Sequence record: EU863408
DNA: 64,000 nt
Source: Escherichia phage JSE
Strand: one strand, 5' to 3'
The notes under the pieces: model-generated
Seen by the model: the letters and a program-made list of their open reading frames with translations, nothing else
Databases searched by the model: none
What the model was told of the DNA's origin: nothing
Program-made: the position numbers and the translations under genes
Shown here: positions 44,985 through 58,666 of the stretch, piece by piece
How positions within the stretch are numbered: the stretch's first letter is position 1
How the letters are laid out: every line of letters begins with the position of its first letter

Positions 44985-45012
44985 TGAACATACTATAAAA
45001 GGAGACCCAATA

Positions 45013-48000
45013 ATGGCAGATTTTTCTCAACATTTCAAGGCCACATTTGGCTTTGACGCTGGTAATGAAAAGGTCGTCAATGTAGCATACGCAGATAAAA
45101 ACACATCAACGGATGCGGTCAACGTTGAATTTTTCAATTACCATAATGGTATTACTCAGTATGACACAACTCGCGGTTATGATCAATACGGAACTACAAT
45201 CTATCAAAACCGTCCGTATTATGCAAAAGAAGATATCACAAAGCCAGCAGGTGATTTTGACCCGACTAAATGGCAAGCACTGCGCACGGACCCACGTTGG
45301 GATTATATTGCAGCAACTTCCAGTGATACTCCTTTAAAGTCTGGTGATTATATCGCAGCAGATGGTCAATTTGCAAACTTGACTTTCTCTATGCCAACTA
45401 AACCAGCAGAGGGAGACACTATAACAGTAAAAGATATCGGTGGCAAGTGTGGTGTTAACGAATTATCGTTCTTGAGTTCAGGACATGAGTTTTACCATAA
45501 CGGTAATGTGTATAACCGAAAATGGTATTGCACTACCCCGTATGCAATGAACTATTTCATCTTTGTTCGGAATCGTTGGCATGTTTATCAGACGGGAACA
45601 GAGCCGCGCGGTGTATACGCACAGCCAGCGATTGATGCTATTCAAATGCAGAATGGTGATCAGGTATTTCGTCGTAGTTCGTTGGGTAATATTACCTTAG
45701 TGCTTCCTAAGTTTGCCAACAATGGCGACATGATCCAGACTACAGACCTTGACGGATTAACCGCAACCAACCACGTTACGGTTAAAGTTCATGAGCACGC
45801 AGAAGAACAATCAATTGGCACGTCCGGTCTAAAAGAGATTATCGGTAAGCGTAGCGGTCATGGTGTATTCATCTTTGACAAGACGGAAAACTTATGGCGT
45901 TTGTGGGATGGTGATCAGTCTGTTCGTCTTAAACCGATCATCGATGACACTCGCTTGCAACCTAATAGCTATGTTGCTGTATTTGGTGGTCGTGATGTTA
46001 CTCTGACGCTGCCGACCAATGTCGAGCCGGGTGATCGTATTCAAGTTTCTATGCAGTATATGCAAGGAAACCAGAATTGCCGTATTATCACCGCCACAGA
46101 GGATACAAAAATCCTTATGCAGAAAAACATGGTTCAGTTTCCTAAGCGTAGCGAGTACCCATTCAATGGGACTGATACATGGACTGGAGTGTCTGAATTG
46201 TCTTTCAACGCTGCAAATGATTATGTACCTTATCTGGAGTTCTCTTATTCAGAAGGTGATGATGGTAAGAAATACTGGTTGGTGGCACATGCTCACCCGA
46301 TTGTAGAACGAGTAGATCCGACTCGTAAAGATCGTGTTGGTGTAATTGCACTGGCTACCCAAACTGAAACGAATAAAAACCATGAAGAGAATCCTAGCGA
46401 CGAAGTTGCAGTAACACCAAAAATGCTGGCTAATAAAACCGCCAACGAAACTCGACGCGGTATTGCTCGCATTGCGACTCAAGCGGAAACGCATCAAGAT
46501 ACTGGTTCCAACTTCCTGGATGATGTTATCGTTACGCCTAAAAAGTTAAATGACTGTGTTGCTACCGAAGCCCGTCGTGGTGTGATGGAAATTGCAACCC
46601 AGCACGAAACCAATGAAGGTTTAGACGATACCCGCGCTATTACTCCTAAGAAATTAGAAGAACGTCGCGCTTCCGAAGATCTCGCTGGTATTGCTGAAAT
46701 TGTTCAGGCTGGCGGCAGTGCTGCCGCTCGACGTGGCGAAGCTGGTACAGGGATCTATAACATCAATGACCATGCTAAAATTGTTACGCCAAAAAACATC
46801 AACGAAGTCAAGGCGACCGAAACTTCCCGTGGTGTTGGCTATCTGGCAACTGACGCGGAAGTGCAAGGGGCTACAGAATCAACCCCGCAAGATGCTTTAC
46901 TCATCACGACTCGCACGCTAACGAAACGTACTGCTACCGAATCGCGCACTGGTATCGCTGAAATTGCAACTCAGGAAGAAACAAACTTAGGTCAAAGTGA
47001 TAACCATATCATCACGCCTAAAAAGTTGCATACTCGCCGCGCAACGGAAACTTTACACGGTTTAGCAGAAATTGCAACTCAGCCGGAATTTGACGCAGGT
47101 CTTGACGATGCTCGCATTTCTACCCCATTGAAGATTAAAACCTTCTTTGAGAATGCACAGCGTTTGAAAGTCGATCCGACTCAGGGGCTTAACCTTACTG
47201 GTGATTTGTGGCAAGGTATCACGATTCGCGGTTTGGATGCAACCGAAGATACAAAAGGTGTCGCTAAAGTTGCTACTACTCAGCTTACGGATGCTGGTCA
47301 AGATGATACTACAATCATCACGCCTAAAAAGCTGCAAGGCAAAAAGGCCACCGAAGGTAAAGAAGGTATTATCCGAGTTGGTACTCAAGCCGAAACCGTG
47401 GCTGGTGCACTGGCTAATGTAGCAATTTCTCCGAAGAACTTCAAATATGTTGTTCAGACAGAGGATACATGGAAAGCAACCGAAGCGCGTCGTGGTTTCT
47501 TGAAAGTTGCTACTCAGGAAAACTGTTTTGTTGGTGATAATCTGCAAGGTTCTACTCAAGAACTAGGAAACTACCAGCATGACGGAATTGCTGTTACCCC
47601 TAAAGGATTAAACTACGCACTTGCTAATTTCTTACCTAAGATGGCAACCGCTCAGAATAGTTTGAAATTGGGTAACGTAGAGGCCGCTAAATGGGCGCGT
47701 AGAGACATTGACCAGACCATAGAGAGCAATTACACGTTTAATAAAAACGTTAACGTGAAGGGCGATTTAGAGTGCTTAAAATCAGGTTCCTTTGAAACTC
47801 TGTCTGTGACTAAGAACTCAACCGACGATCCGAGTAATGGTCATCTGGTGTTGGGTGAGCGTGGAGTTGACGGTCACACCGGAATTACTCTGCATGGCAC
47901 AACCGCATCGGAAGGCATGAAAAACTCGTGGTCTATTATCGTTGGTGGTACTGGAACAGCGCAAGTTGTTGATAGTGATGCTATCGCTTTCGGTAAAATC

Positions 48001-48753
48001 AATGATGGTGGAGTCGTCGAGCATTACGCCTTTGCTATGGAACACAATGGCGACGCGACAGCATATAGAGACTTTATTGCAGGTCGTAACCTGTATGCGA
48101 AACAAGGCGGTTTATACATTGTTGACCAGTCTAATCCGGCAATGACTCGTTCCCCAGATGGTATGCTGAATATCGGTCACGGTGGAAGTGTTAACATCAA
48201 GGCAGGTCATCAAACGTTAACTACAGAGATCGCCGGACAGAAATATCAGATCGTACACGCAGGAAACGCTGATGAAGTTCTTAACCGTCAGTTTGTTAAG
48301 AATGCTGGCGATACAATGGTCGGTAAGCTGACTATGGATAATGCGCCTATTGTTTCTGTTAAGCATGAAGCTAGCGCGGCAACCGCTCCGGCAATCAGCA
48401 ACATCGGTTTCTGGAATATGCGCGTTACTACCCAGAACATCAAAGAAACTTATCCAGAGAAGAAAAACGGTACTCTGATGCAATGGGGTACTGACGCGGA
48501 CGGGCTTACCCAGCTTTGGTCCCCAGATGGTACTCATAAACATTATATCCGTTCCGGTACTGGTGGTCAATGGACCGCATGGGGTGAAATTTACACCAAA
48601 CAGAATAAGCCTACCGCTCAGGAAATCGGGGCAGTAGTTGCAGAAGGTGGTTTAATGAACTCTATGACGGTGCGTGACTGGATCAAAGTTGGTAATGTTA
48701 AAATCATCGCCAATAATCTGACTCGTACCGTAGACTTTATCTGGGAAGACTAA
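45013..48753 (+). CDS. 34: long tail fiber proximal subunit gp34
   Basis: 1246 aa; N-terminus and repeated ATE.RRG.A.IAT and ITPKKL segments match T4 gp34. Confidence 0.9.
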   Translation: MADFSQHFKATFGFDAGNEKVVNVAYADKNTSTDAVNVEFFNYHNGITQYDTTRGYDQYGTTIYQNRPYYAKEDITKPAGDFDPTKWQALRTDPRWDYIAATSSDTPLKSGDYIAADGQFANLTFSMPTKPAEGDTITVKDIGGKCGVNELSFLSSGHEFYHNGNVYNRKWYCTTPYAMNYFIFVRNRWHVYQTGTEPRGVYAQPAIDAIQMQNGDQVFRRSSLGNITLVLPKFANNGDMIQTTDLDGLTATNHVTVKVHEHAEEQSIGTSGLKEIIGKRSGHGVFIFDKTENLWRLWDGDQSVRLKPIIDDTRLQPNSYVAVFGGRDVTLTLPTNVEPGDRIQVSMQYMQGNQNCRIITATEDTKILMQKNMVQFPKRSEYPFNGTDTWTGVSELSFNAANDYVPYLEFSYSEGDDGKKYWLVAHAHPIVERVDPTRKDRVGVIALATQTETNKNHEENPSDEVAVTPKMLANKTANETRRGIARIATQAETHQDTGSNFLDDVIVTPKKLNDCVATEARRGVMEIATQHETNEGLDDTRAITPKKLEERRASEDLAGIAEIVQAGGSAAARRGEAGTGIYNINDHAKIVTPKNINEVKATETSRGVGYLATDAEVQGATESTPQDALLITTRTLTKRTATESRTGIAEIATQEETNLGQSDNHIITPKKLHTRRATETLHGLAEIATQPEFDAGLDDARISTPLKIKTFFENAQRLKVDPTQGLNLTGDLWQGITIRGLDATEDTKGVAKVATTQLTDAGQDDTTIITPKKLQGKKATEGKEGIIRVGTQAETVAGALANVAISPKNFKYVVQTEDTWKATEARRGFLKVATQENCFVGDNLQGSTQELGNYQHDGIAVTPKGLNYALANFLPKMATAQNSLKLGNVEAAKWARRDIDQTIESNYTFNKNVNVKGDLECLKSGSFETLSVTKNSTDDPSNGHLVLGERGVDGHTGITLHGTTASEGMKNSWSIIVGGTGTAQVVDSDAIAFGKINDGGVVEHYAFAMEHNGDATAYRDFIAGRNLYAKQGGLYIVDQSNPAMTRSPDGMLNIGHGGSVNIKAGHQTLTTEIAGQKYQIVHAGNADEVLNRQFVKNAGDTMVGKLTMDNAPIVSVKHEASAATAPAISNIGFWNMRVTTQNIKETYPEKKNGTLMQWGTDADGLTQLWSPDGTHKHYIRSGTGGQWTAWGEIYTKQNKPTAQEIGAVVAEGGLMNSMTVRDWIKVGNVKIIANNLTRTVDFIWED

Positions 48754-48786: not shown

Positions 48787-49926
48787 ATGACACAAGATAT
48801 AGAATTACGCAACACTGGAATTAGGTTTGCGCATTTCGACGAAGACTCTGCGACATTTACCAGCATTTCAGAAAATAACTCTGTGATGTATAAGCTGGAA
48901 GTGCGCGGATCTAATGCGGATTCGACCAAACCAGCAAGGATTAGATTTAATGGAGTGGAGATCGTTGGCACTGGCTATGAAAATGGCCTAAATTTTAAAG
49001 TTCTTACTCCAACTGGACAACTACACGAAGAAAAGGTATTCTATGGTCGCGGTGCTGTTTTGGCAATGCGTGATTATCTTTATTTGCTGAAAGGTGACTA
49101 TATCATTGCGATGGCAACACATGGAGAATTGTTTGCAGATCCGATAAGTGATGATATATTTTCTAAGCTGGGATCTGTATCATTCCCGAATCACATTTTG
49201 TTACAGCAAATGCCTCGTGTATCCTATGCAGCAATTTATTCTACTAAAATGGGTAAAATTGTGTGCGAAGGGATGCAAGCAACGCACGGAGAAGGTCAAG
49301 ATTCGTCTATACAAATTGAGAAAGTTTATGATACTATAGACGATCTTGCAATAACAGGAACACCACAACGATTTTTAGATTATCCGGTTGAATATGTTAG
49401 CGAAGATGCCGAACATTTCGAGCTAATACAATGGCCTCATGATGAGATCAGCGCACCACTTGAATATTTTAACATAAAGGCAGGTGACAAACTATCAATA
49501 TCCTTTGAATTGTTCCGTGATAGTGCCGCAGCCGCAGCCAACGTAACAGCGCGTTTCTATCACAACTACTTCACTGATGGACAATATCAAACTGGCGTTC
49601 GTTATAATACCAGCCAGAAGGATCAATGGGAAAAGTTTGAAGCCGTCTATACCGTACCGGAAGGAGTTGATAGTGTTACCACTGGTTGTATCAGATATCC
49701 AACCAACTCAAATGAAGGTATTGTTAAAATTAGAAACATACTAATAACGCCGATCAGCGGAGTCGTCAAAACTACTGGTCCGACTTCATTTGGTGTTAAT
49801 GGTGTTAGAACAACTCATATTCAGGATAACGGTGATTTTACTAACCCTGTAATGAGTCTTCTTAAACTGCCTAGAGATAATAAACACATCACATCCAACA
49901 ACTTTAAAGAGTTCGATGTTGATTAA
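48787..49926 (+). CDS. 35: long tail fiber hinge protein gp35
   Basis: 379 aa; synteny between 34 and 36. Confidence 0.75.
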   Translation: MTQDIELRNTGIRFAHFDEDSATFTSISENNSVMYKLEVRGSNADSTKPARIRFNGVEIVGTGYENGLNFKVLTPTGQLHEEKVFYGRGAVLAMRDYLYLLKGDYIIAMATHGELFADPISDDIFSKLGSVSFPNHILLQQMPRVSYAAIYSTKMGKIVCEGMQATHGEGQDSSIQIEKVYDTIDDLAITGTPQRFLDYPVEYVSEDAEHFELIQWPHDEISAPLEYFNIKAGDKLSISFELFRDSAAAAANVTARFYHNYFTDGQYQTGVRYNTSQKDQWEKFEAVYTVPEGVDSVTTGCIRYPTNSNEGIVKIRNILITPISGVVKTTGPTSFGVNGVRTTHIQDNGDFTNPVMSLLKLPRDNKHITSNNFKEFDVD

Positions 49927-50087: not shown

Positions 50088-50095
50088 TATAAATA
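50088..50095 (+). promoter_or_regulatory. T4-type late promoter motif TATAAATA upstream of gene 36
   Basis: Exact TATAAATA 34 nt before the gene 36 ATG. Confidence 0.6.
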
Positions 50096-50128: not shown

Positions 50129-51619
50129 ATGGCAGATTTGAAACATGGATCTACTGTAGGCGGATCTCCCATTTGGACGCAAGGAAACTTGACGATCCAG
50201 CCAGCGGGGGATCAGCTTTTCTACAAAGGTCATAAAATCTATACCGCTTTTGATAAACCTTCGGCTGCCGATTTTGATGCTGTTAGTGCTAAAGACGGTG
50301 GCACATTTCAAAAGCAGGTCCATTTTGAGGAAGGTTTAAGCGTAGGTAGCGCATCGGCTGGAGAAACCAAAAAGAACGGGATCTTTAAAGGAAATAGTGA
50401 TGCGGCTAACTTTGATGGTGTAAGTTGGGGTTTGCATTCGTGGAAATCTATTGGTTTTGTTAATGCCCGTGATGGCGTTATCATGGCTTATATTGACACT
50501 ACCACAGGTGATTTTAAAACTAAAGGGACTATCGAAGGGACAACCATTAAAGACACAGGTCAACGCGTCTATAGCCCTGTTAATAAACCAACGAATAATG
50601 ATTTAGATTTGGTGTCTCGTCGCGGTGATACCCTCACAGGAACATATAATTTAAACACTGTCACTGTTAAACTATCGGTTGATTCGAAATTAATTGCAAG
50701 GGAACGTGATTTAATTAATTTTGATGCGACTAAGATCTATTATGGTAACGTTCTTGATACGTTGGTCTTCCGAAGTAAAGATGAGCCTACCATTTTTGTT
50801 AATGGCAGAGAAGGTCGTTTTTATCACACCAACAATAAACCAACTAAAGCCGATGTTGGGCTAGGCAATGTCACCAATGATGCACAGGTTAAACGTGCTG
50901 GTGATATTATGGAAGGTAACTTGCAAGCGCCTAGAATGTTGGCGACAAACGATCCGGCTGGTCCTAATGAATTGGTTCGTTTGAGCTACTTTGAGAGAAA
51001 ATCAATGGTAGCAAATCCAACCATCATTGGAAACGTTGATTGGAACACTCTTATTAATCGCGGTATCTATCGTGTGGAAAATGCTGGGTCAGGTACTAAT
51101 AAACCGTCTGATAGCTATTATAACGGCGTTTTGATGGTATATCGCCCAGAAGATGCGGTCGGTACTCGTCGAATTGTTCAGGTGTATTATCCTGAATCTA
51201 TTGACCATCCGATGTGCTGGCGTTCGTGTTCTAATGAATCATGGACTGCATGGAACTATGTAGATCACCGTAAATTAGCCGATATTCGCTATGTTAACGT
51301 AACTGGCGATACCATGACAGGACCGTTAACTGTTCCGGCTGCAAACGGTGTTAGAACAGCTAGAGGTGCATATAATGGTGATAACTACTATGCTGGGTTA
51401 AATAGTGCCGATGGCACGGCTATGATTCACCGTATCAGCGATATTAAAGCCACTGAAAAATTGGGTATTACACATGATTCGAAAGCTGTTTTCGTTAAAT
51501 CGCGTGGAAATACTCAAGCCACAGACCGCTATGAACTTTACCACGAAGGGCATAAACCTACCCCTGCCGAAGTTGGCGCGGTTCCACTTAATGCGGTGAT
51601 TGATTTTGGTACTTTCTAA
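50129..51619 (+). CDS. 36: long tail fiber distal-half connector gp36 (extended, 496 aa)
   Basis: N-terminus MADLKHGSTVGGS..W.QGN resembles T4 gp36; repeated NKPT segments. Confidence 0.75.
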   Translation: MADLKHGSTVGGSPIWTQGNLTIQPAGDQLFYKGHKIYTAFDKPSAADFDAVSAKDGGTFQKQVHFEEGLSVGSASAGETKKNGIFKGNSDAANFDGVSWGLHSWKSIGFVNARDGVIMAYIDTTTGDFKTKGTIEGTTIKDTGQRVYSPVNKPTNNDLDLVSRRGDTLTGTYNLNTVTVKLSVDSKLIARERDLINFDATKIYYGNVLDTLVFRSKDEPTIFVNGREGRFYHTNNKPTKADVGLGNVTNDAQVKRAGDIMEGNLQAPRMLATNDPAGPNELVRLSYFERKSMVANPTIIGNVDWNTLINRGIYRVENAGSGTNKPSDSYYNGVLMVYRPEDAVGTRRIVQVYYPESIDHPMCWRSCSNESWTAWNYVDHRKLADIRYVNVTGDTMTGPLTVPAANGVRTARGAYNGDNYYAGLNSADGTAMIHRISDIKATEKLGITHDSKAVFVKSRGNTQATDRYELYHEGHKPTPAEVGAVPLNAVIDFGTF

Positions 51620-51689: not shown

Positions 51690-54599
51690 ATGGCAGATTT
51701 AAACAGAATCCAATTTAAACGTACTAGCACGAAAGGTCGTAAACCTGATGCTACTACAATGACGCAAGGTGAACTTGCTATCAACCTGCATGATTATTAT
51801 TTGTTTACAAAAAATGACTCTGGTTCTATTATTAACTTAAGCTGTCCTCCGATCTATGACCGCGATGTTATCATGGCTGGTAAAGTAAAGGGAGATTATT
51901 ACATTTTAGGTAAAACCGCCAATTATCTTGAAGATCAGACAGCGAGAGACCTTAACCGTTTTGGAGCATTCCGTACCAACGGTCTAGATGGATTTTTAGA
52001 TTTGACCTTGCATGTTCCTCATTCTGCTGGCGTTCAACATGGTCGAGGATTTACTTTCCGTTATGCGACTGGCGGATCTCGTGTTGAAACATATGGGTAT
52101 AATGCACAGGGACAAAAAGCATTTAGCTATAAAATGTATCATGAAGGTGATAAACCAACTCCAGGAGAACTGAACGTTTATAGCAAACAAGAAGTAGATA
52201 GAATGTTTGTTAAAAACGTTAAACTTTCTACAGGTTCTGGTGATATCGTTGACGGTTATTTTAAATTAGCGACTGCGATGATTCCACAAGACGGTCGTAG
52301 TGTATTTTTCCGTATTCATGGTGGTAACGGATATAACATTACTGCATACGATCAAGTTGATATTGTAGAAATTGTTATTCGCAGTGGAAATAATCGTCCT
52401 AAAGGTGTTAACGTTATTGCATACCGCCGAAATACAAACAAAGCATTTGATGTTTTGGCTGTTAATACTTCTGGTGATAACTATGATATCTACGTGAAAT
52501 ATCAGCGTTACACTGATAACGTTATTGTTGAATTTGGTAAAAGTGTTGATGTTAATCTGGTAGTCCATGACGTTCCAGACTTTGTTGTTGATCGTCCTGT
52601 TGGCGATAATGTTATTGGCGGTCGCGCGGTAACTCTTTTCAACACCGAAAACAAACGAGGTGTGTTGAGTTTTGACGACAATACACAAAACAGCTATGAT
52701 ATTGTTCACATGAGTAATGATAAAGGTACTGGACGAAAATATATTCGTAAATTCCGTAGTAACTATAATGAAATGATCTGGCATGAGACGGTTCAAGGTA
52801 ACGTATATCGTTTAGCTACTGGAACTACCGACGCAAACGAAGTTCTCAAAATTACCGACCGCACGTTGCAAACTGGCAATGCTGTTTTTGACGGTGGTAA
52901 TAATAATGTTCGTTTACATCGTAAAACCGGAAAAAGTAACTATCTGGAATATTATGATGCCCGTGACGGAGCAAATAAACGTCAGGGATATATTGGGTAT
53001 GGCGATGCCACAACTAACCAGTTGTCAATTATTAACGAACTCTCCGAAGGTAATAACTCGATTTTCTTTAACGAGACAGGTCAAATTTCACTTAACGTAG
53101 GAAAGACAAAAATTGTTCATAGCAACGGACAATATATTTCTACCAACGCCGATAACTATCGTATAATTTATGGTAATTATGGAACATTCTGGCGAAATGA
53201 TAGCGTTAAACTTTATCTCATGTCCACTGCCGAAAATGATAAATGGGGTACTTGGAATAGCTATCGACCATTCATTTACAACCTAACCAGCGGCGATGTT
53301 CAATTGGGTGGTGATGGTAACGAATCGGCATTAACGTTAGAATGTGCTTCTCGTGCCGCTCGCTTTAGTAATGACGTTTACATTAAGAAAGGGCTTTTGA
53401 CTTTCGACGCTGGGCGATTAGGATCTCGCGATTATATTAGATTTAATCATTGGGGCGATAGCAATAACGGTCGCGATAACATCCTACAGATTGAAGACAG
53501 TCAGGGCGCACATTTTACCACTGAACGTGCTATGGGTACTGGTAACATAACAGCACGTTTTAAAGGCTTTGTTCGTGTTGAGTCTGGTGAGATTGCATTT
53601 GATGCTAATCGGGGGTCGCAGTCTCAATTTACCTTACACACATGGGGTAACGAGCAACGCAAACAGGTTTTTGAATGTAAGGATGCTACAAGTTATCACT
53701 GGTATACTGAACGTACTCAGGGTGGCACTGGACCTATTCTGTTCGTTATGGCGGGTAGTCTAAACGTTGGTAGCAATATCACAACAACTGGTCCGGATAT
53801 TACGTTTAAACGCGCTGGCAATAAGCACATCTGGTTTAGAGATCCAAACGGCTTAGAGTTAGGCTTGATGTACTGCGATGATGCTGGTGCTATTCGCTTC
53901 CGTGGTCAGAAACAAGCCCAGGCGTGGAAATTTGCAGATAAAATGATCCAGTTGGAATCTGGCACTGTATCCGGTGGCGGTAATGGCCTGATTCGTGGTG
54001 AAGTTGCTGGCGGTAGTTGGGCTAGCTGGCGTGACCGTGCTGCTGGCCTTATGGTTGGGTGTCCTCAATCAACCAATTCCGCTCATAACATCTGGAAAGC
54101 TACTCATTGGGGTCAATATCACATTGCAGCAATGGGTGTACATGTTCCTAACGGTACTATCGGTGATGCTATAGCTCGCCTAAACGTTCATGACGCCAAC
54201 TTTGACTTTAGCGCCTCCGGTGACATGTCGGCAGGGCGTAACGGTTCGTTTAACGATGTTTATATTCGTTCTGATGCTCGCCTTAAAATCAATAAGGAAG
54301 AGTATAAGGAGAATGCCACTGATAAAGTTAATCGCTTGACTGTGTACACCTACGATAAGGTTAAATCTTTAACTGACCGTAGTGTTATCGCCCATGAAGT
54401 TGGTATTATTGCTCAGGATCTTGAGAAAGAATTGCCGGAAGCAGTAACAACTTCTAAGGTCGGCGACCCAGATAAACCAGAAGAGATCTTAACAATTTCT
54501 AACTCTGCTGTCAACGCTCTTTTAATTAAGGCGTTTCAGGAAATGAGCGAAGAATTGAAAGCCGTTAAAGCTGAACTAGCGGAACTTAAAAAGAATTAA
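51690..54599 (+). CDS. 37: long tail fiber distal subunit gp37 with C-terminal intramolecular chaperone-like domain
   Basis: N-terminus MADLNRIQFKR..GELAINL resembles T4 gp37; C-terminal segment with SDARLK motif and terminal coiled coil. Confidence 0.8.
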   Translation: MADLNRIQFKRTSTKGRKPDATTMTQGELAINLHDYYLFTKNDSGSIINLSCPPIYDRDVIMAGKVKGDYYILGKTANYLEDQTARDLNRFGAFRTNGLDGFLDLTLHVPHSAGVQHGRGFTFRYATGGSRVETYGYNAQGQKAFSYKMYHEGDKPTPGELNVYSKQEVDRMFVKNVKLSTGSGDIVDGYFKLATAMIPQDGRSVFFRIHGGNGYNITAYDQVDIVEIVIRSGNNRPKGVNVIAYRRNTNKAFDVLAVNTSGDNYDIYVKYQRYTDNVIVEFGKSVDVNLVVHDVPDFVVDRPVGDNVIGGRAVTLFNTENKRGVLSFDDNTQNSYDIVHMSNDKGTGRKYIRKFRSNYNEMIWHETVQGNVYRLATGTTDANEVLKITDRTLQTGNAVFDGGNNNVRLHRKTGKSNYLEYYDARDGANKRQGYIGYGDATTNQLSIINELSEGNNSIFFNETGQISLNVGKTKIVHSNGQYISTNADNYRIIYGNYGTFWRNDSVKLYLMSTAENDKWGTWNSYRPFIYNLTSGDVQLGGDGNESALTLECASRAARFSNDVYIKKGLLTFDAGRLGSRDYIRFNHWGDSNNGRDNILQIEDSQGAHFTTERAMGTGNITARFKGFVRVESGEIAFDANRGSQSQFTLHTWGNEQRKQVFECKDATSYHWYTERTQGGTGPILFVMAGSLNVGSNITTTGPDITFKRAGNKHIWFRDPNGLELGLMYCDDAGAIRFRGQKQAQAWKFADKMIQLESGTVSGGGNGLIRGEVAGGSWASWRDRAAGLMVGCPQSTNSAHNIWKATHWGQYHIAAMGVHVPNGTIGDAIARLNVHDANFDFSASGDMSAGRNGSFNDVYIRSDARLKINKEEYKENATDKVNRLTVYTYDKVKSLTDRSVIAHEVGIIAQDLEKELPEAVTTSKVGDPDKPEEILTISNSAVNALLIKAFQEMSEELKAVKAELAELKKN

Positions 54600-54639
54600 G
54601 GAAACTCCCAGGGAAGGGAACTACTAAGGAGAAACGGCT

Positions 54640-54879
54640 ATGGTCTATAATATCGTCATTGGTGCTTTGTCTAATTTCGGAATGAAATTATTGTCAAAGT
54701 TAATTAGTGAAAAGATGCTCACTAAAATTTTCTTCTATTGCGCTCGTCGTCTTGCGGCTTATACCAATACGCCAATTGATGATCGTTTTGTGGAAGAACT
54801 TTATAAGGAGTTTAATAAAGATCAGTCAGAAGATAGTAACGAGCAAGATAAACCTAGTGATAGTCAACTACCTAAATAA
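54640..54879 (+). CDS. small hypothetical protein (79 aa)
   Basis: ORF between gene 37 and t; hydrophobic N-terminus. Confidence 0.4.
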   Translation: MVYNIVIGALSNFGMKLLSKLISEKMLTKIFFYCARRLAAYTNTPIDDRFVEELYKEFNKDQSEDSNEQDKPSDSQLPK

Positions 54880-54912: not shown

Positions 54913-55569
54913 ATGCAAGTTTCTGAAAAAGGGAAAGACTTTGCTATCTCAAATGTCCTGCGCGCTATTTTCACAACTAAAAGCACGGAGTTGCTCGTAC
55001 TTCGTGTTTTTGCTGCCGTCGTGTTGTCCATATTGGCATTTGTCGTTTATAGTAAAAACGAGTTATTTGCGCTTTATAAAGAGACTCGTTATGAGACTTA
55101 TGCTCACATTCTCCAGGTAGAGAAAGACCGCAATTTTGATAATGCAGCACAGGAGCAGTTACAGATAGTTCATGTATCGGCTGATGCCGATTTTTCTGCT
55201 GTTTTTAGTTTTCGTCCGAAAAACCTAAACTATTTTGTTGATTTGGTGGCATATGAAGGAAAGCTACCGCATACAATCGATGAAAAGAATTTAGGCGGAT
55301 TCCCTATCAATAAAACGAGTGAAGAATATCGTAGGCATCTTTTAGGTAAATCATATTTTACCGATAAAGATTTCCAGTATATTCCATCAAGAGAAAAGAA
55401 ATTAGAGAGTATCGATATAGGGGTTATGTATTCTTGTCCTATATTCAATCTCGACAATGTCTATTCTGGTAGTATCTCCATTGCATGGAAGAATAAACCG
55501 GATATTGACATTGAGAATTTAGATACTCTTTGCAATCAATCTGCCAGAATCCTCGGAAGGATTAGATAA
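54913..55569 (+). CDS. t: holin
   Basis: 218 aa; close to T4 holin T (LQIVH.S.DADFSAV.SFRPKNLNYFVD..AYEGKLP, YSCP.FNLDN.Y.G, ARILGR). Confidence 0.85.
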   Translation: MQVSEKGKDFAISNVLRAIFTTKSTELLVLRVFAAVVLSILAFVVYSKNELFALYKETRYETYAHILQVEKDRNFDNAAQEQLQIVHVSADADFSAVFSFRPKNLNYFVDLVAYEGKLPHTIDEKNLGGFPINKTSEEYRRHLLGKSYFTDKDFQYIPSREKKLESIDIGVMYSCPIFNLDNVYSGSISIAWKNKPDIDIENLDTLCNQSARILGRIR

Positions 55570-57566: not shown

Positions 57567-57851
57567 TTATTTTCGGTTGTACTTCTGCCACTTTCGGTAA
57601 TACTGTTTGTAAAATTGTTTTACGTTTTCACCATCTTTACTATACATGTTATCTACCATCAAGTCAATAAGACCTCCCGGTGTCTGGTAGTTCCCCGCTC
57701 GGATAAGTTCTTTAATTAAAGTGTCCTGATGATCTTTGTATACTACGTTAATGATGGTCTTTTCTGCTTTCTTCGTCCCGACCATCCGGTGATTAGCTTT
57801 CATCGCATCCCACCAATCTTTTGTGATCTTCATGTTATTAAATTTCATCAC
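57567..57851 (-). CDS. hypothetical protein (94 aa)
   Basis: ORF only. Confidence 0.45.
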   Translation of the reverse strand: MMKFNNMKITKDWWDAMKANHRMVGTKKAEKTIINVVYKDHQDTLIKELIRAGNYQTPGGLIDLMVDNMYSKDGENVKQFYKQYYRKWQKYNRK

Positions 57852-58666
57852 TTAACCTCTTCGCAAGTATATCTCCACTCAATACGTTTTTCGTTTCCAC
57901 CGCGCTCAGCATCATAGATATGACGGAATGTCAATTTGCTTTCATCATCAACAAGTTTATTTCCTTCGAATTTAGCGCCATGTTTTGCAGAGAATATCAA
58001 TCCGATTTTATAATCTTCGCTGTTGATCATAGTTCCGTTATCTGTGATTTCAAAATCCATAACTACAGGGTCTTGCATTGTGCTGGAGATCATGATTTTA
58101 GCAATGTCACCTCTCTTAGAAACTTGAATTTTTGCATTTCGTTTCATAATATCATCATCTTCTACACTCATTCCATTGATTGTAGTAATTTTAACAACTT
58201 TCGGGCAAATGTAGGAAAACGTGGTTTTCTTCGGATTAATTACTTCCGGCTGTTTCTCTTCAACCTTCGGTTCTTCCACCACTTTTTCTTCCTGTTTCGG
58301 TTGTTCTTCTTCAACCTTCGCAGAAGTCTCTGAATCGCTTTCTGGTGCTGTTTCTTCTTTAGGTAATACATTCATCAAGTTTTGAATTTGAGCGTTATAT
58401 ACAGCCTCCAGTGGCTGAATCTGCCCGATATTGATCATTGTATCACGAACAGTTTTATTCCAGTTGCGTTGCTCTTGTTTCAGAGACGGATCAATCTTAA
58501 CAGCCTTAACATACACCTCATGAAGTTTAGAGTCCAGTGCGGAGATTGACTCATTAGCACAAATAAACTTCTCTGATTTGGTAGTAGCTTTAGCGCAATC
58601 AAAGGACGCAGCGTTAGCACCGAAAGCAGTAGCAGAAAGAACGATAGCAGCGATAATGTTTTTCAT
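57848..58666 (-). CDS. secreted protein with DUF1311/LprI-like N-terminal domain
   Basis: Signal peptide (..FGANA/AS); SFDCAKATTKSEKFIC...L.D..L..VY and W-containing segment typical of DUF1311; Glu/Lys-rich linker. Confidence 0.5.
   Translation of the reverse strand: MKNIIAAIVLSATAFGANAASFDCAKATTKSEKFICANESISALDSKLHEVYVKAVKIDPSLKQEQRNWNKTVRDTMINIGQIQPLEAVYNAQIQNLMNVLPKEETAPESDSETSAKVEEEQPKQEEKVVEEPKVEEKQPEVINPKKTTFSYICPKVVKITTINGMSVEDDDIMKRNAKIQVSKRGDIAKIMISSTMQDPVVMDFEITDNGTMINSEDYKIGLIFSAKHGAKFEGNKLVDDESKLTFRHIYDAERGGNEKRIEWRYTCEEVK

Follow-up and report, generated by a model that had tools for sequence, protein, structure and literature searches.

The long-tail-fiber locus described here very probably encodes a tip of the T2/T6/S16 type, whose adhesin gene g38 in this phage's genus lies about 55 kb away and outside the window (the 64-kb stretch of DNA that was analyzed). 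The phage belongs to the genus Krischvirus, the RB49/Phi1-like T4-type coliphages. The distal subunit gp37 ends in an intramolecular chaperone that is expected to cut itself off. The receptor-binding tip is most likely gp38 rather than the cleaved gp37, because relatives keep a displaced g38 and because RB49 host-range mutations lie in gp38. A self-cleaved gp37 capped by gp38 whose gene has moved is an arrangement that has already been described.

No record in the phage collection matches the window more closely than ~93-98%, and an exact-sequence search of public assemblies with its gp37 returned no contig. Genes run in the order g34-g35-g36-g37, a small ORF (RB49p252/Dc5) and t, as in RB49, Phi1 and JSE of the genus Krischvirus. 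The gp37 ORF (51690-54599, + strand, 969 aa) matches PHROG 1699, 'long tail fiber protein distal subunit' (E 6e-189), and carries a Gp34_trimer domain at residues 458-530. Holin t bounds the locus on the downstream side (54913-55569, + strand; Pfam Phage_holin_T, E 1.6e-60).

The last 109 residues of gp37 (S861-N969; 54270..54596, + strand; 12.2 kDa) are a Peptidase_S74 intramolecular chaperone. The first-pass annotation had proposed such a domain, and a profile search bears this out: PF13884 matches residues 861-920 over its full length (model positions 1-58/58) with E = 1.1e-11 and 45.2 bits, and matches the isolated 109-aa piece with E = 4e-13 and 49.9 bits; the gathering score of the model is 22. 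The domain begins, as also annotated, with an SDARLK motif (54270..54287, + strand) that is read directly from the sequence as NGSFNDVYIR-SDARLKINKE. Within the motif, Ser861 (54270-54272, + strand) is the predicted scissile and nucleophilic residue and Lys866 (54285-54287, + strand) the predicted general base; an alignment of 32 homologs shows no variation at S861, D862 or K866. T5 pb1 has the same Ser(i)/Lys(i+5) spacing in its Ser1264/Lys1269 dyad (PMC4690869). A profile built from the 32-homolog alignment matches gp37 of S16 (6F45_A, E 5.8e-12) as well as the tail fiber 8JOV and the MyRF ICA domain 7DC3.

Structure prediction gives the same assignment. The AF2 model of residues 780-969 (pLDDT 83.9) finds 7DC3 (probability 1.00, E 7e-5), 3GUD and 3GW6 as best Foldseek matches, all of which are intramolecular chaperones and the latter two phage chaperone structures. 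The model ends in a 31-residue helix, NSAVNALLIKAFQEMSEELKAVKAELAELKK, at residues 938-968 (54501..54593, + strand; positions 159-189 of the 190-aa query, block pLDDT 88-95). This helix, annotated earlier as a coiled coil, is the expected building block of the chaperone's trimeric coiled coil; in T5 and K1F, a trimeric coiled coil lies at the center of the chaperone (PMC4690869).

Self-cleavage is predicted at R860^S861 because this junction aligns with the experimentally defined site of S16 (DLNVS^SDRRIKK) and with the sites of the fPS phages (DVYIR^SDGRLKI) (PMC7917993). Residue 860 as the end point is taken from that alignment and agrees with the cut near this residue that the annotation had anticipated. 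The predicted mature gp37 (residues 1-860; 51690..54269, + strand; 95.8 kDa) would thus end in a ...GSFNDVYIR strand. The junction GNGSFNDVYIR-SDARLKINKEE is ~90% identical to that of T6 gp37, GNGSFSDVYIR-SDSRLKINKEE, and the T6 gene is directly followed by a gp38 adhesin gene. The tip region also aligns with the S16 gp37 chain of the gp37-gp38 complex 6F45. In S16, autocleavage of the last 113 aa of gp37 exposes the docking surface for gp38 (PMC7917993; PMC6851490).

Conservation varies along gp37, which is 79% identical to its Phi1 counterpart overall. The distal 265 aa, chaperone included, are the most conserved part (~95%), whereas the mid-shaft varies: segments at residues 385-530 and 600-705 are swapped relative to Phi1 and look like fiber sequences from lambda-like E. 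coli prophages. One search of genome contigs with a lambda-like prophage fiber as query gave no match. Lambda-like E. coli prophages with the same fiber tip also carry a Gp38_N-bearing protein. A conserved distal part combined with a variable mid-shaft would fit a docking surface rather than a host-range determinant.

No gp38 is visible within the 64-kb window; the annotation had noted none between g37 and t. A tblastn search with Phi1 gp38 returned no significant match, HMMs for the whole gp38 protein and for its N-terminal domain alone found nothing above 5.7 bits in the six-frame translation, and the T4-type gp38 chaperone reached a best E of 0.55 against the same six frames. This absence holds for the window and says nothing about the whole genome. 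A T2-type gp38 adhesin (PF05268 and PF21721) is encoded ~55 kb from g37 in at least 20 of the 25 closest Krischvirus records, counted among the matches listed, and the literature covers a 21st, Brandy. The gp38 matches have 82-100% identity; TB34 and SAP (98.5%) are among the records concerned. In Phi1, g38 occupies 44989-45765, ~55 kb from g37, and its product matches PF05268 (237 bits), PF21721 and S16 gp38 (6F45_D, E 3e-50). TB34 has its g37 at 74.3 kb and its g38 at 132.5 kb. The displaced locus of the relatives falls at least 45 kb past either end of the window.

Published work on Krischvirus agrees with this placement. RB49 g38 has been described as "displaced to a distant locus", and a small ORF as filling its slot (PMC3157838). 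The RB49 host-range mutations E230K and Y231S fall within gp38 (PMC9569957), and Krischvirus gp38 variants set the use of Tsx, OmpF or OmpA (PMC12032242). Krischvirus g38 has moved and is not lost; judging from these relatives, the gene of the phage analyzed here probably lies outside the window too. The 2.5 kb that precede the displaced g38 of TB34 contain no canonical TATAAATA late promoter, so sequence does not explain how this gene is expressed late.

The interval between g37 and t holds one ORF, of 79 aa (54640-54879, + strand), which is preceded by an AAGGAG ribosome-binding site; the ORF list agrees on this with the first annotation. Neither a terminator nor a late promoter separates it from g37, and it appears to be co-transcribed with that gene. 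The product matches phrog_402 (E 5e-20), a PHROGs family of unknown function, and has the precomputed family PF26925, of which the literature searched makes no mention. NCBIfam yielded nothing and the Pfam copy used gave a sub-threshold match only. The protein is 97-100% identical across Krischvirus records, and homologs occur in Ounavirinae, where they likewise sit after a tail-fiber gene, and in phiEco32-like phages, where they sit between capsid and tail genes. AF2 predicts three helices at low confidence (pLDDT 58.6). The ORF encodes a small predicted three-helix protein in the slot that g38 occupies in T2, T4 and T6, and it is not a gp38.

Two further assignments of this ORF were rejected. 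It has the 7-mer EELYKEF in common with T4 gp38, which is encoded in the same genomic slot; the match (E 0.55, 6 bits) is taken as chance because it is not significant and because the motif is unconserved within the ORF's own family. Ounavirinae homologs lie upstream of holins, an observation that prompted the idea of a membrane role. The maximum hydropathy of 1.31 over 19 aa was judged below typical transmembrane values, and the phiEco32-like homologs are not beside lysis genes.

The mechanism that we propose draws on homology for its steps; domain identity, the catalytic residues, junction homology, the lack of g38 in the window and the displaced g38 of relatives come from the present analysis. 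The gp37 protein would be synthesized as a 969-aa precursor, and its C-terminal S74 chaperone would direct both trimerization and the folding of the distal beta-helix. After correct folding of the trimer, Lys866 would activate Ser861 to cut the R860-S861 bond of every chain, whereupon the 12-kDa chaperone would depart as a trimer. The cut would expose a flat tip built from three DVYIR strands. A single gp38 adhesin may then dock in this tip via the attachment domain at its N-terminus (Pfam Gp38_N, which has conserved tryptophans), and its polyglycine-sandwich loops would bind OmpA, Tsx, OmpF or certain O antigens and so set host range. In Krischvirus this adhesin would be supplied from a gene ~55 kb from g37, with a small unrelated ORF left between g37 and t.

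In the absence of a visible gp38, the first-pass annotation had proposed that the self-cleaved gp37 tip binds the receptor itself; on this model the phage lacks a gp38 adhesin. Some fibers that carry an S74 chaperone, T5 pb1 for example, do bind their receptors directly (PMC4690869), and the whole 64-kb window is free of gp38. This reading is nevertheless very unlikely: the closest relatives inspected have gp38 at a displaced locus beyond the range of the window, the DVYIR tip strand is a conserved gp38 docking element, the distal 265 aa are conserved relative to Phi1 while the shaft varies, and the RB49 host-range mutations map to gp38 (PMC9569957). The annotation thus stands as regards the chaperone and the expected self-cleavage, and is not supported as regards gp37 as the receptor-binding tip. 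There is also little chance that this particular phage has lost g38 and adsorbs by a bare DVYIR tip or by another Gp38_N-bearing protein encoded outside the window. Such a loss, if true, would be a natural case of an adaptor-type fiber tip reverting to a receptor-binding one. In a weaker variant, the conserved 79-aa ORF (phrog_402/PF26925), which follows tail-fiber genes in several phage groups unrelated to one another, would have an unrecognized role in fiber assembly.

It is just as improbable that the 79-aa ORF stands in for gp38 as a small adhesin or fiber-specific chaperone. Its position in the g38 slot, its apparent co-transcription with g37, the tail-fiber gene that precedes its Ounavirinae homologs too, and the EELYKEF 7-mer would speak for such a role. 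Yet it lacks Gp38_N and shows significant similarity to neither kind of gp38 (best E 0.55), EELYKEF is unconserved in its family, its sequence is 97-100% identical among Krischviruses that differ in gp38 and host range, its phiEco32-like homologs lie between capsid and tail genes, and every relative checked has a true gp38 as well. An inactive S74-like domain that is retained on the mature fiber has the lowest probability of all and would be a considerable surprise. The literature search found no direct demonstration of cleavage and no published virion proteomics or cleavage data for any Krischvirus gp37. Against retention, Ser861, Lys866 and the junction as a whole are conserved in T6 and S16, two phages with documented processing, and a retained chaperone would obstruct the docking surface for gp38.

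A cleaved gp37 that is predicted to serve as the attachment point for gp38 places the locus with the tips of T2, T6 and S16. Shared features are a C-terminal S74 chaperone with an S-D-x-R-[LI]-K motif, a beta-strand just before the cut that forms the gp38 docking tip, and a gp38 that in Krischvirus has the Gp38_N attachment domain and polyglycine sandwich. Krischvirus differs in that g38 lies ~55 kb from g37 on the opposite strand, with the unrelated 79-aa ORF in its slot, and, upstream of about residue 835, the shaft of this gp37 bears no relation to those of T6 and S16. T5 pb1 and the K1F endosialidase share the S74 family, the Ser/Lys(i+5) dyad, the fold with its terminal coiled-coil helix and the release of the chaperone after trimer folding, which is predicted for the gp37 studied here. 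However, their matured proteins bind or degrade the receptor, whereas this gp37 tip is a predicted adaptor for a separate adhesin; its distal part is conserved and relatives have that adhesin, which sets it apart from a self-sufficient fiber of the pb1 type. T4 has the locus at the same genomic position and the same gp34-37 long-tail-fiber architecture. Unlike the protein described here, T4 gp37 lacks an S74 domain, is itself the receptor-binding needle and needs a Tfa-like gp38 chaperone. The window contains neither a homolog of that chaperone nor the gp37 needle domain, and a search of the PDB with its gp37 gave no match to the T4 gp37 tip.

The main value of these results is a correction, and the current picture of T-even fiber assembly is unchanged. 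The case illustrates that a gene absent from a window is not thereby absent from the genome: reasoning limited to the window ("no gp38, so gp37 binds") would choose the wrong receptor-binding protein. For RB49-like phages, host-range prediction should read gp38, whose gene lies well away from the fiber operon, and not the gp37 C-terminus or the small ORF that follows it.

The window encodes a long-tail-fiber operon of the T4 type that comprises gp34 (45013-48753), gp35 (48787-49926), gp36 (50129-51619, 496 aa, versus ~220 aa in T-even phages according to Trojet et al., PMC3157838) and the distal subunit gp37 (51690-54599, 969 aa). A 79-aa ORF (54640-54879) and holin t (54913-55569) follow. Megablast assigned the window to the genus Krischvirus (relatives RB49, Phi1, ECD7, TB34, SAP and others), with identities to its records of 85-93% from g37 to t and 96-98% farther downstream, and none is an exact match. 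Downstream of t lies a 272-aa ORF (57848-58666, minus strand) with a hydrophobic N-terminus, possibly a signal peptide, a Glu/Lys/Pro-rich linker, and a marginal match to the lysozyme inhibitor domain LprI (PF07007, 24.4 bits, cut-off 22).

The last 109 residues of gp37 had been proposed to form a chaperone-like domain that begins with SDARLK and ends in a coiled coil, and a profile search confirmed the domain. Pfam Peptidase_S74 (PF13884) covers residues 861-920 end to end (45.2 bits), and the isolated C-terminus scores 49.9 bits against a gathering score of 22. Residue 861 (position 54270) opens SDARLKINKE, directly after NGSFNDVYIR, and S861, D862 and K866 are invariant among 32 aligned database homologs. 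A profile built from this alignment matches S16 gp37 (6F45_A, E 5.8e-12), 8JOV (also a tail fiber) and 7DC3, the ICA domain of eukaryotic MyRF and a known relative of S74. In an AlphaFold2 model of residues 780-969 (mean pLDDT 83.9), a mixed alpha/beta unit leads into a terminal helix of 31 residues (938-968). A Foldseek search of the PDB with this model gave confident matches to 7DC3, 3GUD and 3GW6 only, all of them intramolecular chaperones. Because the Pfam match, invariant residues, profile matches, model and Foldseek hits agree, we conclude that the S74 domain and its terminal helix are real.

The self-cleavage near residue 860 that the first-pass annotation envisaged is likewise a sound prediction, by homology at R860^S861. 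The junction (GNGSFNDVYIR/SDARLKINKEE) is that of T2/T6/S16 and aligns with T6 gp37 (GNGSFSDVYIR/SDSRLKINKEE), whose gene is directly followed by that of the gp38 adhesin. The region also aligns with the S16 gp37 construct that was crystallized together with gp38 (PMC6851490). In S16, autocleavage at DLNVS^SDRRIKK removes the last 113 residues and exposes the gp38 docking surface, and the equivalent site in fPS phages is DVYIR^SDGRLKI (PMC7917993). The same Ser(i)/Lys(i+5) chemistry has been described for T5 pb1 and K1F (PMC4690869). A cut at R860^S861 would yield a mature gp37 of 95.8 kDa and a chaperone of 12.2 kDa.

With only the 79-aa ORF between g37 and t, the annotation had read gp38 as missing and gp37 itself as the receptor-binding tip. 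The first part of this reading holds within the 64 kb. A tblastn search with Phi1 gp38 found nothing significant, HMMs built from the whole of gp38 or from its N-terminal domain alone reached at most 5.7 bits against the six-frame translation, and the best match of the T4-type gp38 chaperone had an E-value of 0.55. The gene is present in relatives. Phi1 carries gene 38 at 44989-45765 on the minus strand and g37 at 151643-154585; its gp38 has glycine-rich motifs, PF05268 (237 bits) and PF21721, and matches S16 gp38 (6F45_D, E 3e-50). Among the tblastn matches listed, at least 20 of the 25 Krischvirus records nearest to the window have a gp38 of 82-100% identity; that of Brandy is described as divergent (PMC9569957). 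By synteny the window corresponds to Phi1 positions ~100 kb to ~164 kb, and the g38 locus would therefore lie at least 45 kb beyond either window end. Displacement from g37 is known in RB49 (Trojet et al., PMC3157838) and was seen in every Krischvirus record inspected, including TB34 (g37 at 74.3 kb, g38 at 132.5 kb). Judged from these genomes, the genus has gp38 and the gene has moved. In isolates FL04, FL15 and FL20, but not FL37 or FL38, gp38 is reported near the holin (PMC12032242); this may come from the way the genomes were linearized, or the genus may have a second arrangement. The displaced g38 is a virion gene set among early-strand genes; in TB34 a terminator-like hairpin lies immediately 5' of its start codon, and the 2.5 kb upstream hold no canonical T4 late promoter (TATAAATA).

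The second part, gp37 as the tip, is not supported; the T2/T6/S16 junction, the gp38 of relatives, the literature and the pattern of conservation all point away from it. In RB49, a gp38 monomer attaches to gp37 after the self-cleaving chaperone has acted, and the host-range mutations E230K and Y231S map to gp38 (PMC9569957); Krischvirus gp38 variants determine the use of Tsx, OmpF or OmpA (PMC12032242). Compared with Phi1, gp37 residues 705-969 are ~95% identical and residues 385-530 and 600-705 are replaced. A conserved distal part and a variable mid-shaft thus fit an adaptor, not a receptor-binding tip.

The 79-aa ORF has its own Shine-Dalgarno sequence and resembles neither kind of gp38. 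Neither a terminator nor a late promoter (TATAAATA) lies between it and g37 or between it and t; the closest late promoter, at 50088, precedes g36. It belongs to phrog_402, a family of unknown function (E 5e-20; precomputed family PF26925), and is 97-100% identical across Krischviruses. Homologs with 30-45% identity follow a tail-fiber gene and precede the holin in Ounavirinae, and lie between capsid and tail genes in phiEco32-like podoviruses. The conserved core comprises F13, E24, FF31-32, TxT42-44, DD47-48 and F50. The AF2 model, of low confidence (pLDDT 58.6), consists of three helices with a disordered, acidic tail. Our best guess is a late-module accessory protein. The family (here and at L003:3492-3686, L009:2992-3201, L008:3001-3192 and L010:3004-3186 of the compared loci) also extends to a Vibrio phage and is always found in blocks of late or structural genes. 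The Ounavirinae members directly precede an annotated or presumed holin, as does the ORF in the window. A 7-mer, EELYKEF (54784-54804, around ORF residues 49-55), is shared with T4 gp38 (~113-119), encoded in the same genomic slot. We rejected this match, which is not significant (E 0.55) and involves a motif not kept in phrog_402.

Most of gp37, including DVYIR/SD and the chaperone, is shared with ~1200-aa fibers in ~35-kb lambda-like prophage contigs (gpA-type terminase, lambda-like tail tube). Relatives of these in the protein database carry E. coli or Shigella names. Two genes downstream of one such fiber, L033:14309-14815 (IMGVR_UViG_3300029516_000235) encodes a protein of 168 aa that starts with a 45-residue Gp38_N domain (PF21721, E 3.9e-15), 59% identical to Phi1 gp38 in this stretch; its C-terminal part differs and has no polyglycine sandwich. 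Short Gp38_N adhesins are not new: the Stx phages P13374 and phi191 have an annotated 'tail fibre adhesin', to which this protein is 45% identical. Since the DVYIR tip and a Gp38_N protein occur together in prophages, dock and plug travel as a pair across phage types, which independently supports the gp38-capped tip. The chimeric P0031 (303 aa, from a 25.7-kb contig and named as E. coli; precomputed PF13884, PF05268 and PF21721) joins the gp38 attachment domain, beta-helix and first glycine-rich motifs, in its N-terminal half, to a fiber tip (CNDVYIR/SDRRLKIN) and a full S74 chaperone; either recombination or an artifact of assembly could explain it. gp37 itself is mosaic. Its divergent segments lie at window 52840-53280 and 53490-53805, and the latter is nearly identical to the prophage fibers (L012, L028, L033), which suggests that temperate siphoviruses and a virulent phage of the T4 type have recently exchanged fiber modules. 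A Gp34_trimer domain (PF21446, E 6e-23) at residues 458-530 (53061-53279), which also matches structures of T4 gp34 and of fiber S from phage Mu (4UXE, 5NXF, 5YVQ), is a further sign of modules shared between fiber subunits.

The likeliest mechanism for the JSE fiber is thus that the S74 chaperone would fold gp37 and then be cut off, and that a gp38 adhesin, its gene at another locus, would then cap the exposed tip. Such a scheme is the already known textbook T2/S16 model, in the known RB49 gene arrangement.
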